A DNA stretch of 64,000 bases from Bdellovibrionales bacterium (GTDB lineage Bacteria > Bdellovibrionota > Bdellovibrionia > Bdellovibrionales > JAUICD01). Position numbers and translations under genes: made by a program. Below, one piece after another: positions 17,808-51,419 of the stretch (its first letter is position 1; each line of letters opens with the position of its first letter). The stretch spans positions 512,001 to 576,000 of the forward strand of contig OZ253553.1 of assembly GCA_965262715.1 (NCBI GenBank), in the 5' to 3' direction. Below the pieces are notes generated by a model. It ran no database searches. It saw nothing but the letters and a program-made list of their open reading frames with translations, and was not told where the DNA came from.

Positions 17808-18320
17808 TAAGGGCTGTTTCAGTAAAAGTGCATCTCGCCTCTGGCGACTTTTTGGCAGTAAGCCTGGCGGTTAGAACCGTCGGCAAATAGCTTACTGCCT
17901 AGAAAGGCTAATGCATTTTAGTAGGGAGGATCTTCTTGTTTCTTAACACAATGTTAGGGAAATTTTATTCTTGCCATCGGATCAGTACCTAGATTTATTT
18001 CATGGACAATCCTCAAAGAGGCTCACCTCGAGAGGCTCACCTCGAGAGGCTTGTCTTCTATTCATTTTGAGTAAAACAGAATGAAGGAAATTTTCTTTAA
18101 CATGATGTAAAAGAATGAAGATATTCTCCTTACTTAAAATAAATGGATTTTTGAGGCAGTCAGCATTTTGTTGACGGGGATACATCCCGTAGTGTTAACC
18201 GTCAAGTTGGCTGCCCAAAAACAACCAGAGGTTGATTTATTTTGAGTGAAATAAATTAAATACAAAACTGGTATCTTTTTTAAAACTTTTCTCTCTAGGA
18301 GCATTTTTGAGATGGCTTTT
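17808..18320. repeat. Composite R1 element (two oppositely oriented hairpin modules plus a terminus)
   Basis: Hairpins at ~17814-17960 (+) and ~18085-18250 (-); 17867-18074 is a near-identical inverted copy of ~46430-46625; ends atttttgagatggctttt. Confidence 0.8.
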
Positions 18321-38145: not shown

Positions 38146-38255
38146 AGCTTTCTAAGCAGCAAGCTACTCTCCGATGGTGTTATAACCATCGGGCTTGCTG
38201 CCAGAAGGTGGCCGGAGGCTTGCCTCGAGAGGCTTGCCTCAAGAGGCCAGATGTT
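38146..38255 (-). repeat. Partial R1 hairpin repeat
   Basis: gcagcaagc/gcttgctgc and ccgatgg/ccatcgg stems with two 14-bp gaggcttgcctcga units. Confidence 0.65.
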
Positions 38256-43987: not shown

Positions 43988-44065
43988 CTCCCGGAATCTG
44001 GCAATCCAGCAGTCGGGCAATTAGTTCCCGGAAACCGGTTTCCCGGAAGCCAGATCCCTGGTAAA
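43988..44065. repeat. R3 family repeat
   Basis: ccggaatctggcaatccagcagtcggg...cccggaaaccggtttcccggaagccagatccc, similar to 50766-50840. Confidence 0.7.
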
Positions 44066-44307: not shown

Positions 44308-44379
44308 TTTAATTTCAAGAACTTATCGCAAAAGTAAACAGCCCCTTAGTTATAAACTAAATGTTACTTTGCTTGTTTT

Positions 44380-44479
44380 TATCTTTAAAAAAAGATATTT
44401 AGATATAATTTGACTATTTATATCCTTAAATAAGGTTATTATATATTATTCTATTTGTTTTTATCCTTAAAAAAGGATA
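44380..44479. promoter_or_regulatory. Three HipB-type operators at 41-bp spacing
   Basis: TATCT-N8-AGATA (44380), TATCC-N8-GGTTA (44421), TATCC-N8-GGATA (44462); the E. coli hip operator consensus is TATCC-N8-GGATA. Confidence 0.75.
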
Positions 44480-44505
44480 TTATTATAAAAAAAAGGGTTA
44501 TTTAT

Positions 44506-44739
44506 ATGAAAAAAGGTATTGAAGAAACAGAGGTATCAAGATTTGGTTTGTTCATTAAACAAAAGCGTAAAAATAGAGGTATAACTCAAAAGGAGTTAGC
44601 TAGGCATGCAAGGGTCAGTTTTACATTGGTCAATCGTATAGAAAATGGAGATATAAAATTAAATATATCTTCTGTAAATAAAGTTTTGAAAGTTTTTGGA
44701 TGCGCACTTGCCCCTGTTCGTTTAGAGATTAAAGAATGA
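44506..44739 (+). CDS. HipB-like XRE helix-turn-helix antitoxin
   Basis: IKQKRKNRGITQKELARHARVS...RIENG; ATGA overlap with the hipA-like gene. Confidence 0.85.
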   Translation: MKKGIEETEVSRFGLFIKQKRKNRGITQKELARHARVSFTLVNRIENGDIKLNISSVNKVLKVFGCALAPVRLEIKE

Positions 44740-46139
44740 AAAATATTGCAAATGAAGAGAATTATATGTCAGAGATAAAAAAAATAATAAATACAAAGAA
44801 GGCTTGGGTTTATTTAAGAGATATTCTAGCAGGGGAGCTTGAAAAATCCGATGAGGCTTCTGTAGTTTTTAAATTCACTTATTTTAAAGATTATTTAGAA
44901 AGTCAAAACCCAGAAATAGCTCGAGCTTTTCCTAAAAGAAAAGAATCTTATATCAGTTCAGATTTACACCCTTTTTTTGATAATCTTATTGTTGAAGGAT
45001 GGTTATTAACATATACAGAAAAACTTTTACATATTCATAAATTAGATCGTTTCAAACTGCTTATGGCTACAGGAAGCGCTCCTATTGGGGCTGTAAGTGT
45101 GAGACCTGTTTATAATCAACAACCTATCAATATGACTGAAGTTCTTTTTAATAAAAACACAGAAGTTCACTTTATTAAAGAACCTAATAAGATGAGAGAT
45201 ACATTTCATTTTTGTCCATCTTGTTTTCGGGAATTAGGAGGGGATGAAGTGCATAGAAAGTGTACTATAGCTATGTGGGGCACAACAAGAAAGTTGAAAT
45301 TAAAAATAAATAAAGATAGTCCTGATGAAATGTTTGGATCTACTATTTATGGAGGTTCTATATCTGGTCATCAAAAAAAGGGAATGTTTAAAATCAACAG
45401 CAGGACAGGTGAATTGGTACCTACACCTGATAGAGCAACTCATATCTTAAAGCCATCTGGACATTTACCAGAGTTGCCAGAAAATGAACATGTCACAATG
45501 GCTATTGCAAAAGCTTTGAAATTTCCTACACCTTCGTTTGATTTGTTGGAATTTGAAGGCATAGGGAGAGTGTTTGCCACTGCTCGCTTTGATCGCAGTT
45601 TGGATGGAATGAGATTGCCATTGATGCAAGAGGATATGTGTCAGGTTATAGGGGTTTCAAGTGATAGAAAATATGATCTAAGTTATGAGAAGATTGCAAA
45701 AGCAATTAGAAAACACAGCTTGGCGCCTTTGGTTGATCTTTATGATTTTTATCGTAGGTTTGTTTTTTGTTATCTTGTGCTTAATGGGGATATGCACTTA
45801 AAAAATTGGTCTTTACTTGAAAGTCAAAAAGAGTTAGGTAGCTTTGTATTAGCGCCCTGTTACGATCTTTTAAATACAAGAATTTTTTTATCAAGAGAGT
45901 TAACGGATATAGCTCTACAGTTGAATGGAAAAGATAGGAATCTTACTAAAAAGGATATTTCCTATTTTGGTAAAGATATTGGTCTTAGTGCTGAAACTAT
46001 TGAACTTATTTTTAGCGAGCTTTCAAGCTGGTTGGAGGTGATTAAAAAATACATAAATTTGTGTTTGCTTAGTAAGAAGTCAAAAGAAGCTTACCTTGAA
46101 GGTGTTTATAAAAGGTATAACATTTTATTAAAGAAATAA
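44736..46139 (+). CDS. HipA-family Ser/Thr kinase toxin (N-terminal coupled domain fused to the kinase domain)
   Basis: LHPFFDNLIVEGW, SISGHQKK, HILKP, PENEH..M, RFDR, QEDMCQ, NGDMHLKNWS, LAPCYDL. Confidence 0.9.
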   Translation: MKNIANEENYMSEIKKIINTKKAWVYLRDILAGELEKSDEASVVFKFTYFKDYLESQNPEIARAFPKRKESYISSDLHPFFDNLIVEGWLLTYTEKLLHIHKLDRFKLLMATGSAPIGAVSVRPVYNQQPINMTEVLFNKNTEVHFIKEPNKMRDTFHFCPSCFRELGGDEVHRKCTIAMWGTTRKLKLKINKDSPDEMFGSTIYGGSISGHQKKGMFKINSRTGELVPTPDRATHILKPSGHLPELPENEHVTMAIAKALKFPTPSFDLLEFEGIGRVFATARFDRSLDGMRLPLMQEDMCQVIGVSSDRKYDLSYEKIAKAIRKHSLAPLVDLYDFYRRFVFCYLVLNGDMHLKNWSLLESQKELGSFVLAPCYDLLNTRIFLSRELTDIALQLNGKDRNLTKKDISYFGKDIGLSAETIELIFSELSSWLEVIKKYINLCLLSKKSKEAYLEGVYKRYNILLKK

Positions 46140-46171
46140 AAAATATCAATTATTATTTATACAAAGTTATT

Positions 46172-46330
46172 TTCCGGGAAACAGGCAACCCGGCAGTCAG
46201 TTTCCGGGATCCATTCAGTCCATTCTTGAGAGCTAGATTATAGTTTATCTAAAAAGATATAGATGAAACTTTCTACTTTCTTAATTCCTAAATCCCGGAG
46301 TTCAGTTTCACAGAGACCGGATTCCGGGTA
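46172..46330. repeat. R3 family repeat fragments
   Basis: ttccgggaaacaggcaacccggcagtc and cccggagttcagtttcacagagaccggattccggg. Confidence 0.6.
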
Positions 46331-46342
46331 AAAAGAAGTTCT

Positions 46343-49300
46343 AGAAGCCATCTCAAAAATGCAGCTAGAGATAACAATTTTAGAAAAAATACCAGCTTTA
46401 TATTATACAAAGAATTCCATGAGATGGCCTTTACTCAAAATGAATAGAAGACAAGCCTCTCGAGGCAAGCCTTTTTGAGGATTGCCCATGAAATAAATCT
46501 AGGTACTGATCCGATGGCAAGAATAAAGTTTCCCTAACATTGTGTTAAGAAACAAGAAGATCCTCCCTACTAAAATGCATTAGCCTTTCTAGGCAGTAAG
46601 CTATTTGCTGACGATGTGAACCGCCTGAGCTGACTACCAGAAAGTCGCCAGAGGCTAGCCTCGAGAGGCGAGATGCATTTTAGAGAAAAAAAAGCAGGTT
46701 CATTTTGAGGAAGACAGCTTTTTTATATAAGAAATTAGAGGTAATAGGTACAAATGTTCATAGACTTTTACTGAAACAGCACGATTCCCTTAACATGATG
46801 TTAAATAATGAGGAGTATCTGGTTTACTAAAATGCATCAGGCTTTCCAGGTAGTCAGCTATTTGCTGACGATGTGAACCGCCTGAGCTGACTACCAGAAA
46901 GTCGCCAGAGGCTCGCCTCGAGAGGCGAGATGCATTTTAGTGAAAAAAAAGCAGGTTTATTTTGAGGAAGACAGCTCTTTTATATAAGAAATTAGAGGTA
47001 ATAGGTACAAACGTTCATAGACTTTTACTGAAACAGCACGATTCCCTTAACATGATGTTAAATAATGAGGAGTATCTGGTTTACTAAAATGCATCAGGCT
47101 TTCTAGGTAGTCAGCTATTTGCTGACGATGTGAACCGCCTGAGCTGACTACCAGAAAGTCGCCAGAGGCTCGCCTCGAGAGGCGAGATGCATTTTAGTGA
47201 AAAAAAAGCAGGTTTATTTTGAGGAAGACAGCTCTTTTATATAAGAAATTAGAGGTAATAGGTACAAACGTTCATAGACTTTTACTGAAACAGCACGATT
47301 CCCTTAACATGATGTTAAATAATGAGGAGTATCTGGTTTACTAAAATGCATCAGGCTTTCTAGGTAGTCAGCTATTTGCTGACGATGTGAACCGCCTGAG
47401 CTGACTACCAGAAAGTCGCCAGAGGCTCGCCTCGAGAGGCGAGATGCATTTTAGTGAAAAAAAAGCAGGTTTATTTTGAGGAAGACAGCTCTTTTATATA
47501 AGAAATTAGAGGTAATAGGTACAAACGTTCATAGACTTTTACTGAAACAGCACGATTCCCTTAACATGATGTTAAATAATGAGGAGTATCTGGTTTACTA
47601 AAATGCATCAGGCTTTCTAGGTAGTCAGCTATTTGCTGACGATGTGAACCGCCTGAGCTGACTACCAGAAAGTCGCCAGAGGCTCGCCTCGAGAGGCGAG
47701 ATGCATTTTAGTGAAAAAAAAGCAGGTTTATTTTGAGGAAGACAGCTCTTTTATATAAGAAATTAGAGGTAATAGGTACAAACGTTCATAGACTTTTACT
47801 GAAACAGCACGATTCCCTTAACATGATGTTAAATAATGAGGAGTATCTGGTTTACTAAAATGCATTAGCCTTTCTAGGCAGTAAGCTATTTGCTGACGAT
47901 GTGAACCGCCTGAGCTGACTACCAGAAAGTCGCCAGAGGCTAGCCTCGAGAGGCGAGATGCATTTTAGAGAAAAAAAAGCAGGTTCATTTTGAGGAAGAC
48001 AGCTTTTTTATATAAGAAATTAGAGGTAATAGGTACAAATGTTCATAGACTTTTACTGAAACAGCACGATTCCCTTAACATGATGTTAAATAATGAGGAG
48101 TATCTGGTTTACTAAAATGCATCAGGCTTTCTAGGTAGTCAGCTATTTGCTGACGATGTGAACCGCCTGAGCTGACTACCAGAAAGTCGCCAGAGGCTCG
48201 CCTCGAGAGGCGAGATGCATTTTAGTGAAAAAAAAGCAGGTTCATTTTGAGGAAGACAGCCCTTTTATATAAGAAATTAGAGGTAATAGGTACAAACGTT
48301 CATAGACTTTTACTGAAACAGCACGATTCCCTTAACATGATGTTAAATAATGAGGAGTATCTGGTTTACTAAAATGCATCAGGCTTTCTAGGTAGTCAGC
48401 TATTTGCTGACGATGTGAACCGCCTGAGCTGACTACCAGAAAGTCGCCAGAGGCTAGCCTCGAGAGGCGAGATGCATTTTAGTGAAAAAAAAGCAGGTTC
48501 ATTTTGAGGAAGACAGCCCTTTTATATAAGAAATTAGAGGTAATAGGTACAAACGTTCATAGACTTTTACTGAAACAGCACGATTCCCTTAACATGATGT
48601 TAAATAATGAGGAGTATCTGGTTTACTAAAATGCATCAGGCTTTCTAGGTAGTCAGCTATTTGCTGACGATGTGAACCGCCTGAGCTGACTACCAGAAAG
48701 TCGCCAGAGGCTAGCCTCGAGAGGCGAGATGCATTTTAGTGAAAAAAAAGCAGGTTCATTTTGAGGAAGACAGCTCTTTTATATAAGAAATTAGAGGTAA
48801 TAGGTACAAACGTTCATAGACTTTTACTGAAACAGCACGATTCCCTTAACATGATGTTAAATAATGAGGAGTATCTCGTTTACTAAAATGCATCAGGCTT
48901 TCTAGGTAGTCAGCTATTTGCTGACGATGTGAACCGCCTGAGCTGACTACCAGAAAGTCGCCAGAGGCTCGCCTCGAGAGGCGAGATGCATTTTAGTGAA
49001 AAAAAAGCAGGTTCATTTTGAGGAAGACAGCCCTTTTATATAAGAAATTAGAGGTAATAGGTACAAACGTTCATAGACTTTTACTGAAACAGCACGATTC
49101 CCTTAACATGATGTTAAATAATGAGGAGTATCTGGTTTACTAAAATGCATCAGGCTTTTTAGGTAGTCAGCTATTTGCTGACGATGTGAACCGCCTGAGC
49201 TGACTACCAGAAAGTCGCCAGAGGCTCGCCTCGAGAGGCGAGATGCATTTTAGTGAAAAAAAAGCAGGTTTATTTTGAGGAAGACAGCTCTTTTATATAA

Positions 49301-50364
49301 GAAATTAGAGGTAATAGGTACAAATGTTCATAGACTTTTACTGAAACAGCACGATTCCCTTAACATGATGTTAAATAATGAGGAGTATCTGGTTTACTAA
49401 AATGCATCAGGCTTTCTAGGTAGTCAGCTATTTGCTGACGATGTGAACCGCCTGAGCTGACTACCAGAAAGTCGCCAGAGGCTCGCCTCGAGAGGCGAGA
49501 TGCATTTTAGTGAAAAAAAAGCAGGTTCATTTTGAGGAAGACAGCTCTTTTATATAAGAAATTAGAGGTAATAGGTACAAACGTTCATAGACTTTTACTG
49601 AAACAGCACGATTCCCTTAACATGATGTTAAATAATGAGGAGTATCTGGTTTACTAAAATGCATCAGGCTTTCTAGGTAGTCAGCTATTTGCTGACGATG
49701 TGAACCGCCTGAGCTGACTACCAGAAAGTCGCCAGAGGCTAGCCTCGAGAGGCGAGATGCATTTTAGTGAAAAAAAAGCAGGTTCATTTTGAGGAAGACA
49801 GCCCTTTTATATAAGAAATTAGAGGTAATAGGTACAAACGTTCATAGACTTTTACTGAAACAGCACGATTCCCTTAACATGATGTTAAATAATGAGGAGT
49901 ATCTGGTTTACTAAAATGCATCAGGCTTTCTAGGTAGTCAGCTATTTGCTGACGATGTGAACCGCCTGAGCTGACTACCAGAAAGTCGCCAGAGGCTCGC
50001 CTCGAGAGGCGAGATGCATTTTAGTGAAAAAAAAGCAGGTTCATTTTGAGGAAGACAGCTCTTTTATATAAGAAATTAGAGGTAATAGGTACAAACGTTC
50101 ATAGACTTTTACTGAAACAGCACGATTCCCTTAACATGATGTTAAATAATGAGGAGTATCTCGTTTACTAAAATGCATCAGGCTTTCTAGGTAGTCAGCT
50201 ATTTGCTGACGATGTGAATCGTCAGGCTGACTACCAGAAAGTCGCCAGTCAGGCTGACTACCAGAAAGTCGCCAGAGGCGAGATGCATTTTAGTGAAAAT
50301 AGTTAGATAAAGTTATGAACCACTGGAAATGTTTATTAAGTTTTTATTTTTGAGACCAGTTCTA
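46343..50364. mobile_element. Putative non-autonomous (MITE-like) element enclosing the tandem array
   Basis: Imperfect inverted ends tagaagccatctcaaaaat (46343) / atttttgagaccagttcta (to ~50364); no transposase inside. Confidence 0.45.
46569..50299. repeat. Tandem array of 257-bp R1-derived units: 14 full copies plus a rearranged partial 15th
   Basis: actaaaatgcat recurs at 46569+257n (n=0..14); no ORF of 60 aa or more; no unique spacers. Confidence 0.97.
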
Positions 50365-50375
50365 ATTAAGTTGTA

Positions 50376-50687
50376 TCATGCTACTGTGACAGTTAAGTTA
50401 ATGTGTGCATCTCTTAACTTGTCTTGGAGTGCAAGTTGAATCCAATATGCTTCTGGTTCTCCAATAGCACAAGCAATATTTTTTGCTGTTGTAGGAGATG
50501 GGATCTTCTTTCCTTTCTCAATATCAGAAAGACTTTGAACAGATAGTCCCAATAGAGCAGCACATTTACGTAAGGTTAAATTACGACATTGCCTTTCTGA
50601 AGCAATAGCAGATGCAAAAGTGAGTCTTCCAATATCTCGACTAAGTTCTTTTGTTCCATATTTTATCGTATATTTTTTCTTTGCCAT
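50376..50687 (-). CDS. XRE/HigA-like helix-turn-helix antitoxin or regulator
   Basis: LTLRKCAALLGLSVQSLSDIEKGKKIPS...YWIQLALQD; RBS aaggaa. Confidence 0.8.
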   Translation of the reverse strand: MAKKKYTIKYGTKELSRDIGRLTFASAIASERQCRNLTLRKCAALLGLSVQSLSDIEKGKKIPSPTTAKNIACAIGEPEAYWIQLALQDKLRDAHINLTVTVA

Positions 50688-50766: not shown

Positions 50767-50840
50767 TCCGGTAGTCCGGTAAACCGGTAGTCGGGCCATC
50801 AGTTCCCGGAAACCGGTTTCACGGAGGCCAGATCCCGGAT
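50766..50840. repeat. R3 family repeat
   Basis: ccggtagtccggtaaaccggtagtcggg...cccggaaaccggtttcacggaggccagatcccgg. Confidence 0.7.
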
Positions 50841-50927
50841 AAAAAAAGAAACCTTTTGTAAAATATATTGTAACCTCTTGACTATTTGAATAAAAAACAC
50901 ATTCATTTTCCTTAAAATAAACTAACT

Positions 50928-51200
50928 TCTGTTTCACTAAAATGCATCTGGCCTCTGGCCATTTTCTGGCGATGACCCTGACATGTTTACACTGTCAGTA
51001 TGGTCATCGCCTGGAAAAATTGATGCATTTTAGTAGGGAGGATATCTTCATTGTCTTACGTCATGTTAGGGAAATCCTTGTTGTTTATCAGTCAGCCTGA
51101 CGGGTCGTAGCGTCAGTAAAAAGCTGATTGCCTCAAAAATTCATTTATTTTAAGGAGGGAGATATTCTTTATGTTCTTACATCATGTTAAGGAAAACTTT
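50928..51200 (+). repeat. R1 hairpin repeats (one full, one partial)
   Basis: ctaaaatgcatc/gatgcattttag and ggcgatgacc/ggtcatcgcc stems; two ttac.tcatgtta.gg tails. Confidence 0.75.
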
Positions 51201-51245
51201 CTATAATGTATTTTAAAGATTCATAACTACTTAAACATTTTTCCA

Positions 51246-51287
51246 AGTTCCCAGAGATCGGATTCCCGGAGGCCATGTCCCGGATAA
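51246..51287. repeat. R3 family repeat (partial)
   Basis: agttcccagagatcggattcccggaggccatgtcccggat, similar to 50800-50840. Confidence 0.6.
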
Positions 51288-51419
51288 AAAAAGAAAACTT
51301 TTATAAAATATATTGTAACCCCTTGACTATTTGAATAAAAAACACATCTTATAAGAGCGGATGTATCCAAATGGGGTCTATTCTTTCGTCTTATTATAAA
51401 GCAATAAATAGGTTTGAGT

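Follow-up and report, generated by a model that had tools for sequence, protein, structure and literature searches.

A 64-kb stretch of the genome of a Bdellovibrionales bacterium, referred to below as the window, contains a non-coding tandem array of 257-bp units (positions 46568-50165) that had been singled out in a first-pass annotation. The array is probably a neutral local amplification: a tandem run, inside a TA-flanked miniature inverted-repeat transposable element (MITE), of a non-coding repeat that occurs throughout the genome and folds into a three-way junction. This repeat, called the core below, is polar: judging from the sequences around its copies, only one of its ends appears to be active in the copying and deletion of DNA. 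The interest of the system lies in this polarity and in the missing enzyme, and not in the window array. The window belongs to a 2.94-Mb single-contig metagenome-assembled genome (MAG) that is 93% complete (G000), and the main comparison genome (G001) is a same-genus Bdellovibrionales MAG that is 90% complete. Coordinates are positions in the window unless marked "genome" or preceded by the name of a genome.

A BLAST search with one array unit gave 614 matches across the genome. By an iterated profile (nhmmer hit list), the family numbers 463 hits in 229 clusters in G000, with 452 non-overlapping and 306 full-length copies, and 1261 hits, 741 of them full length, in 399 clusters in G001; it makes up 2% of the first genome and 6% of the second. 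The core is about 150 nt long. It begins with a left motif, TTTCC(T/C)TAACAT, which overlaps a TTAACA-N3-TGTTAA dyad, and continues through a small hairpin into a three-way junction closed by P1. P2 is long and has an invariant bulged A, a T-rich internal loop and a GNNA tip; P3 is short with an AGA loop, and the core finishes with GTGARACAR. Among 297 distinct left ends, the CC and TAACAT positions of the left motif are 95-99% conserved. An alignment of 23 copies, of which 20 were chosen to be diverse and three come from the window, shows double changes at 29 of 41 pairs, and 94.9% of the cells are paired compared with 34-49% in slid controls. The covariation, taken together with the invariant left motif, indicates that something reads the core element.

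The family is restricted to a narrow clade. A covariance model was run on 151 genomes of the order and 150 of the phylum: three genomes of the order were positive (G000, G001 and G004), and no core was detected in any other of the 150 phylum genomes. The cores of G004 lie on contigs C1, C4 and C11, which are 85-92% identical to G000 despite the placement of G004 in another genus. These copies were therefore set aside, and the contigs are likely to represent a contaminating sister species. Cores are present or absent at orthologous sites of the sister-species contigs, and of four syntenic gaps not one has a core in both G000 and G001. Pattern scans found no core in viral contigs or in JGI metagenomes; in GTDB all 80 loci among the matches listed came from one genome, which says little on range. 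Rfam 15 gave only chance-level matches, none at the gathering threshold, for the array and four other core loci. No earlier description of the family was found in a literature search that left most subscription journals and supplements outside its reach.

The first-pass annotation had described 14 full units and a rearranged partial one, and alignment of the units bears this out. The full units, all on the plus strand, follow one another from 46568 to 50165 at an exact 257-bp period, and the fifteenth reaches 50298. Each unit consists of one core and about 95 bp of the MITE. The first core (46528-46688, left motif at 46529-46540) has a 5' half of type A and a 3' half of type B, and its motif, small hairpins and P1/P2/P3 junction were delimited with nhmmer and with sister MITEs at genome 91594, 345139 and 699094. 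Type-B cores follow at 46781-46945 and every 257 bp thereafter to 49865-50029. The stretch between cores, exemplified by 46687-46779, consists of about 60 bp from the body of the MITE, together with what remains of the hairpin end of the basal MITE and of an additional right end; it is seen in 333-bp copies of the MITE and has no match in G001. The last core (50122-50298, plus strand) contains a 27-bp tandem duplication (50221-50275), with 1 bp of microhomology at the P3 loop.

Other features ascribed to the array from its letters were also recovered. It holds no open reading frame (ORF) of at least 60 aa, the longest stop-free stretch being 52 aa, which agrees with its description as non-coding. 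The branched hairpin of about 120 nt occupies unit positions 1-118 with a minimum free energy of -74.5 kcal/mol (z score -4.05; none of 200 shuffles was as stable), and the minus strand of this segment folds too (z score -4.77). The predicted palindrome, TTAACA-N3-TGTTAA, is found in each unit at positions 222-236. The variation between units, at 13 sites, is mosaic, and within it the recurrent variants (five of them, at unit positions 90, 134, 152-153, 188 and 254) reassort as had been proposed. Unit 6 (47853-48109, plus strand), which differs from the consensus at eight sites, does carry the unit 1 haplotype: behind a type-B left part it equals unit 1 at all 13. Since the whole 257 bp repeats, a CRISPR array of short repeats and unique spacers is ruled out. 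At the P3 loop a fold-back insertion of 14 bp (18017-18051, 38215-38247 and unit positions 89-102) is found from zero to several times in a core, and a decayed tRNA copy has it as well.

The container of the array is a MITE extending from 46342 to 50364 on the plus strand. Its terminal inverted repeats, at 46342-46359 and, on the minus strand, at 50347-50364, match at 14 of 18 positions and are the imperfect inverted ends reported earlier. The basal form of this element is 333 bp long, and it has the properties of a MITE: it is short and non-coding, has inverted ends that begin and finish with TA, and exists in dispersed copies. Thirteen paired-end members are found in G000, seven of which are 333-334 bp long and hold only a truncated hairpin. 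End motifs number 188 in G000 against 2 in G001, and those of left type 153 in G000; no transposase was found between MITE-type ends. A related MITE in a sister contig is missing at the G000 site, in an alignment that is not base-precise. ERIC, Correia and RUP are TA-flanked bacterial MITEs, and the outer 333-bp element resembles them in its imperfect inverted ends, TA flanks and lack of coding capacity. It differs from them in being only a container, with no autonomous partner found, and most cores sit outside MITE ends.

Sister MITEs with zero, one, two and three full cores form a build-up series, to which the window MITE adds a member with 15 units. Core A is inserted in the MITE hairpin and core B about 60 bp further on. 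Some members hold both; in the MITE at genome 91594 the two lie in direct orientation, 257 bp apart, and the MITE at genome 1620150-1621289 contains three B units. In the window array the inner joints lead from the 3' end of B to the tail that follows A, within about 18 bp common to both, and unit 1 changes from A to B between its 5' and 3' parts. In unit 6 the switch between the type-B left part and the unit 1 haplotype falls in 13 bp of identity. The three-unit array at genome 1620150-1621289, which lies 1.06 Mb away, carries variants of window units 8, 9, 13 and 14; its units are 98% identical, and its MITE ends only about 85%.

These sequence relations suggest that the array started by exchange between two direct cores which had already landed 257 bp apart. 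Unequal exchange and gene conversion, with crossovers inside identities of 10-20 bp, would then have expanded and mixed the units, and the same processes may have matched them to the distant three-unit array. Loss of mismatch repair as a cause was rejected, MutS being present in the host. The earlier proposal of a satellite-like amplification of a mobile hairpin element is supported by the MITE series and by the genome-wide family, and that of homogenization by unequal crossover or gene conversion by the haplotype mosaics and the 98%-identical distant units. Rolling-circle replication, suggested in the same context, is not needed for the window array because sister MITEs already had two direct cores at a distance of 257 bp; one-ended copying is indicated, on the other hand, for several other arrays of the family.

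The polarity of the core is seen at its right end. At non-homologous joints the donor side falls a few bases beyond this end, about 4-8 nt from the 3' arm of P1, and the acceptor side is variable. The joints have 0-3 nt of microhomology, sharing AG/CT, or T, G, GA, or nothing, and there is no fixed dinucleotide. A new joint to a copy of upstream DNA follows 28 of 346 right ends. Five arrays end 0-2 nt from a whole number of units. In three arrays the first unit begins within the 3' end of the gene upstream, and in two within a tRNA; these five are in-place duplications, as the native gene end or tRNA in which the first unit starts has no copy elsewhere. Other core sites resemble insertions, flanked by direct repeats of about 8 to 102 bp or accompanied by small target deletions. 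Acceptor sites were surveyed at 25 sites picked from the joint and insertion lists, 24 of which were resolved. At eight unrelated loci a distance of 83-89 nt separates the acceptor from the left motif downstream of it, and the resulting units are 228-243 bp long. An automated count of 224-247-bp units, a length window chosen after inspection of the data, gave 6 of 17 families in G000. The count in G001 was 7 of 25 rows, and a single flank is common to six of the seven. The data clearly show a preference for units of about 230 bp in G000, whereas those of G001 only suggest it.

The right end also marks the borders of genes, as judged with crude ORF calls. In G000, 29 of 100 right ends lie at most 15 nt from a convergent stop codon, compared with 7 of 102 left ends; the corresponding figures in G001 are 56/216 and 6/121. 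Start codons are found within 30 nt of 15 of 106 right ends and 2 of 74 left ends in G000, and of 40 of 252 and 2 of 105 in G001, the right ends often lying just before ribosome-binding sites. An inverted right end is located 0-8 nt behind the CCA of four of 39 tRNAs (ARAGORN entries) in G000 and four of 37 in G001, and in each genome three right ends lie just before a tRNA 5' end. A role of right ends as portable promoters would explain the starts and not the stops. The abutment is taken to result from right-end activity, either deletion of adjacent DNA or targeted joining, that was halted by selection.

The window array is not unique: 21 loci in G000 carry near-perfect non-coding arrays of this repeat with a period of at least 100 bp, although cores constitute 7.8% of the non-coding DNA of the genome. 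The window array is the longest of these twenty or so. The arrays of such period in G000 that lack a core are multiples of microsatellites, one 105-bp repeat and one duplication of a CRISPR spacer. The search for similar arrays in relatives that the first-pass annotation had recommended was positive in G001, where 43 of 56 Tandem Repeats Finder rows of this kind contain a core. Its remark that long satellites are unusual in bacteria agrees with the accessible part of a survey that calls them uncommon or rare (PMC6749651). Units are 100% identical in some arrays of the family. For an array of seven 431-bp units at a tRNA-Ser gene, the ratios of unit to flank depth are 6.5, 6.3 and 6.0 in three sequencing runs from two samples, which indicates that the core arrays are real and not hypervariable. 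A 201-bp duplication is common to G000 and a sister-species contig. Helical phasing of the unit lengths was not supported (R at most 0.14 over 23 lengths).

Several further repeats were noted in the course of this work. Cores occur inside CRISPR arrays of two types or at their ends (G000 2607200-2608440, 482122-482269 and 490461-490608; G001 near 369402), and one of these sites shows repeated duplication of blocks of CRISPR repeat plus core. A second repeat family of G001 forms 231-247-bp tandem arrays (C1:576979-577538, 614613-615561 and 1739929-1740837); it has the right-end motif of the core, and the left motif is missing. At G000 2198524-2198955, altered tRNA-Trp-like copies form tandem 89-bp duplications before the intact gene, with no core.

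The core is likely to be a new, clade-restricted variant of the REP (repetitive extragenic palindromic) or BIME (bacterial interspersed mosaic element) type of repeat, without a RAYT. In the mechanism that can be proposed, the right end (...GTGARACAR) of the non-autonomous core would be the reactive end. Joined upstream, it would produce a tandem duplication of native flank and core, often of about 230 bp; joined downstream, an adjacent deletion up to the next essential feature; and joined to a distant site, a long variable target repeat. The catalyst might be a borrowed, long-range IS1634-family transposase, or the joints might result from host template switching at the folded strand. It is possible, if doubtful, that the core represents a new class of non-autonomous mobile DNA without inverted ends or RAYT, whose three-way junction and 12-nt motif recruit an enzyme that joins the right end only and measures about 230 nt back, making satellites from upstream DNA and trimming downstream DNA flush to genes and tRNAs.

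A number of candidate mobilizers were examined and rejected. The sole match to PF01797 (RAYT, Y1 HUH) in G000 is the TnpA of an IS200 element that has ends of its own and lies away from cores. GIY-YIG proteins are represented by only one frame of about 645 aa per host, the tyrosine recombinases (an XerD-like protein of 320 aa and a protein of 185 aa) do not lie beside cores, and a regular-expression search for HUH motifs returned 10 unrelated proteins. Reading the left dyad as a dif/XerD site does not fit its spacing, and no clear dif was found. Four-helix-bundle genes (PF05635) are often invaded by cores but are equally multicopy in the main contigs of G004 and in G021 and G025, in none of which the covariance model detected a core. 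These genes, with 11-19 copies per genome (G000, G001, G004 contigs C12-C15, G021 and G025), are apparently mobile together with heptamer repeats. Rpn/YhgA genes lie near cores in 27 of 29 and 23 of 23 cases in G001, but in only 6 of 18 in G000 and 0 of 16 in G003. Reciprocal best hits were used to look for a REPtron: 2 of 1155 orthologue pairs are flanked by cores on both sides in both genomes, and neither is a recognizable transposase.

The IS1634-family transposase is the best lead, and a weak one. The family has 29 matches in G000 and 10 in G001, and among the copies listed 10 in the former and one in the latter carry direct repeats of about 35-300 bp. Long repeats of variable length at IS1549 and IS1634 insertions have been reported, with no model given in the part of the paper available (PMC2266710). 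Insertions such as those at G000 629439, 294210 and 2829220 and G001:1369232 form a natural data set for that behavior. The inner core was rejected as an IS1634 MITE, its ends not matching the resident IS1634 inverted repeats. There are three reverse transcriptase matches in G000; beside tRNA-Asp and two RtcB-like genes, at 2650522-2652294, this genome encodes a retron-like reverse transcriptase of 590 aa whose N-terminal domain is long.

The following observations weigh against the picture of a polar mobile repeat with a neutral array. Strong covariation and an invariant left motif imply recognition, and a host function is possible; upstream cores co-occur at 20 orthologous genes compared with 11.5 expected. 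The 257-bp unit itself shows no non-homologous joint. The mirror test on left ends gave 11 of 410, so that the raw contrast is 8% versus 3%; on inspection, these 11 cases are the same target-repeat events or module homology. The peak near 230 bp in G001 reduces to two independent events in a post hoc length window, and the copy number of the 431-bp array, which is stable across two samples, opposes rapid accordion behavior. No PF01797 match was found in G001, and at 93% and 90% completeness of the two genomes a very divergent HUH protein could be missed. The Y2 transposase (PF04986) was absent from five of five genomes in a search of uncertain sensitivity, its control being positive in only one of 14 genomes. 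IS110 was not found in G000, the only genome searched for it, and RVT_1 had no match in G001, which is 90% complete. The ends of five IS1634-type elements start with CCTGA, of which the core shares at most CTG, and IS1634 occurs in six other relatives with no detected core.

An explanation that dispenses with an element-specific enzyme is that the folded nascent strand stalls or displaces the host polymerase just past P1 and the short free 3' tail re-primes at microhomologies of 0-3 nt. Such slips would yield duplications, adjacent deletions and ectopic copies, and the fold would be selected for replicative slip. The position of the joints just past P1 and their lack of a fixed dinucleotide agree with it, as does the outcome of the RAYT, Y2, IS110 and reverse transcriptase searches, which gave no dedicated enzyme; multicopy Rpn nucleases, which leave primable 3'-OH ends according to the accessible text of PMC5350276, are present in both hosts. 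The explanation is nevertheless rather unlikely. It does not account for the conserved left motif, which lies outside the junction, for the acceptor cluster 83-89 nt upstream, or for the spread to 229 and 399 clusters. There is no clear bias between leading and lagging strands (258 and 205 hits, 107 and 95 clusters), and no core was found near the multicopy Rpn genes of G003. An RNA route similar to that of a bacterial short interspersed element is improbable. Here, transcripts ending at the right end would be reverse-transcribed from the 3' end of the target, and circular RNA would give concatemers. The fixed right end with variable left extensions, the variable target repeats or deletions, the mostly GNRA-like P2 loops on the top strand, the inverted right ends directly behind tRNA CCA and the three reverse transcriptase matches of G000 are all compatible with this route. 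G001, however, has about three times as many copies and lacks an RVT_1 match, its loops include GACA, GATA and GGTA, the bias of G-T over A-C wobbles is weak (65 versus 46), and right ends abut tRNA 5' ends and ribosome-binding sites too.

A selected function of the array is hardly more probable, and none of the findings calls for a multimeric RNA or a protein-binding array. The array might be a selected unit (a multimeric structured RNA, a battery of promoters or terminators, or a protein-binding platform) that controls the genes on either side of it: a hipB-hipA toxin-antitoxin pair (44455-46139, plus strand) or a HigA-like antitoxin gene (50376-50687, minus strand). The strong fold and its covariation, the -10-like TAACAT hexamer and dyad in every unit and the frequent position of right ends just before ribosome-binding sites speak for selection. 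Against it, no Rfam family matches, promoter and terminator counts equal those of shuffles, about 20 other core arrays adjoin unrelated genes, and the syntenic gaps occupied in one genome are not shared by the other. The hipBA orthologue of G001 has no core within about 1.5 kb on either side and different neighbors. Finally, it is very improbable that the array is an assembly or amplification artifact of one or two units. The source is a single-contig MAG and some arrays of the family are 100% identical, which speaks for an artifact, but the units form a mosaic of 13 variable sites, read depth confirms a sister array and the 201-bp duplication recurs in the sister species. Short-read contigs also contain the head-to-tail joint at high depth. 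The read-depth check recommended earlier gave, in run X5, a depth of 33.2 for the joint 46824->46568 compared with 2 for the hipA flank; as this joint is common to a few other genomic copies, the value is rough support and gives no exact copy number, and the X5 reads may be related to the assembly source, their independence being uncertain. In runs X1 and X2 hipA is uncovered, and no such backward joint is among those listed.

The two flanking loci had been annotated as convergent toxin-antitoxin systems. The hipBA pair is confirmed (Pfam HTH_3, Couple_hipA and HipA_C; TIGR03070 and TIGR03071), whereas the second locus is an orphan: its HTH_3 antitoxin-like gene lacks a toxin ORF on its upstream side. 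In G001, a toxin-sized ORF of 91-94 aa precedes two of the three homologues. A special relation between the array and these loci was not borne out: the region is not syntenic with that of the coreless hipBA orthologue in G001, and the second locus lacks a toxin. Given that the array is one of about twenty formed by a repeat with 452 copies in the genome, its toxin-antitoxin neighbors, hipBA included, are likely to be incidental. In type III toxin-antitoxin systems, tandem repeats of 34-57 nt lie upstream of a toxin of the ToxN, TenpN or CptN type; the array, with its 257-bp units downstream of a HipA gene, is not of this kind.

A second core site lies on the minus strand at 50801-51347. It consists of a full core (50932-51076) and a truncated one (51085-51197) between 102-bp direct repeats (50801-50902 and 51246-51347) that are 90% alike, one of which is abutted by a core right end. 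The direct repeat is the upstream region of dnaJ, around one and a half cores, and the HigA-like gene may have lost its toxin partner at this site. Upstream of hipB, three imperfect AT-rich repeats with a 41-bp spacing (44358-44490) are possibly HipB operators. CCGG-rich repeats of 7-8 nt (43988-44054, 46165-46320, 50768-50850 and 51246-51290) flank hipBA and the antitoxin gene, and this family flanks the multicopy four-helix-bundle genes genome-wide too.

Among known systems, REPINs come close to the core in several respects. As far as the available text of Bertels & Rainey (2011, PMC3116915) describes them, they also exist as hundreds of intergenic folded copies of narrow host range, insert into and beside each other, and form ordered, near-identical tandem clusters that include flanking DNA, with near-identical arrays of 12 units in opposite orientation at distant sites. 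They are symmetric doublets of REPs of about 25 nt mobilized by RAYTs, whereas the core is an asymmetric three-way junction with a separate left motif and no RAYT found, and the text available does not mention one-ended polarity or a preferred unit of about 230 bp. The REP/BIME elements of E. coli, in the portions of Ton-Hoang et al. (2012, PMC3333891) at hand, share with the core locus-conserved tandem copies with variable linkers, an imperfect hairpin with conserved unpaired bases and a model in two steps, diversification followed by local amplification. TnpA-REP cuts C^T and needs a 5' GTAG, whereas core joints follow no strict C^T and no REPtron is present. The core thus has the hundreds of clade-restricted copies and the tandem clusters with flanking DNA (21 loci) of the REP/REPIN/BIME group; membership in its RAYT-dependent form was rejected, as no RAYT gene was found and strict C^T joints, a GTAG foot and a symmetric doublet are lacking.

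Other families show partial likeness. IS91 elements (available part of PMC13181058) have two different ends with subterminal palindromes, and one fixed end that captures adjacent DNA. One-ended capture is found in the core as well; an assignment to IS91/ISCR was rejected, because no Y2 transposase was found, there is no fixed target tetranucleotide, and the core has long target repeats where IS91 has none. IS1634 and IS1549 share with the core the long variable direct repeats around insertions (PMC2266710, in part), but the core has no terminal inverted repeats matching those of resident IS1634 elements, and the association is circumstantial. The satellites of Leptospira interrogans (Subirana & Messeguer 2019, accessible part of PMC6749651) are likewise non-coding tandem-repeat families across a genome, described as rare; core units differ from them in being 150-430 bp long, having a covarying fold and including unrelated native flank.

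The array in the window is a by-product of this family, and nothing was shown that bears on toxin-antitoxin control. REP-like repeats without RAYT lack a known engine, and the sharp, countable polarity of the core together with the few candidate enzymes turns this into a testable question. If it is true that an IS1634-type transposase acts on the core, this would provide a handle on the origin of long variable target repeats. The core family makes most of the long non-coding satellites of two Bdellovibrionales genomes and appears to reshape the borders of their genes and tRNAs from one end.

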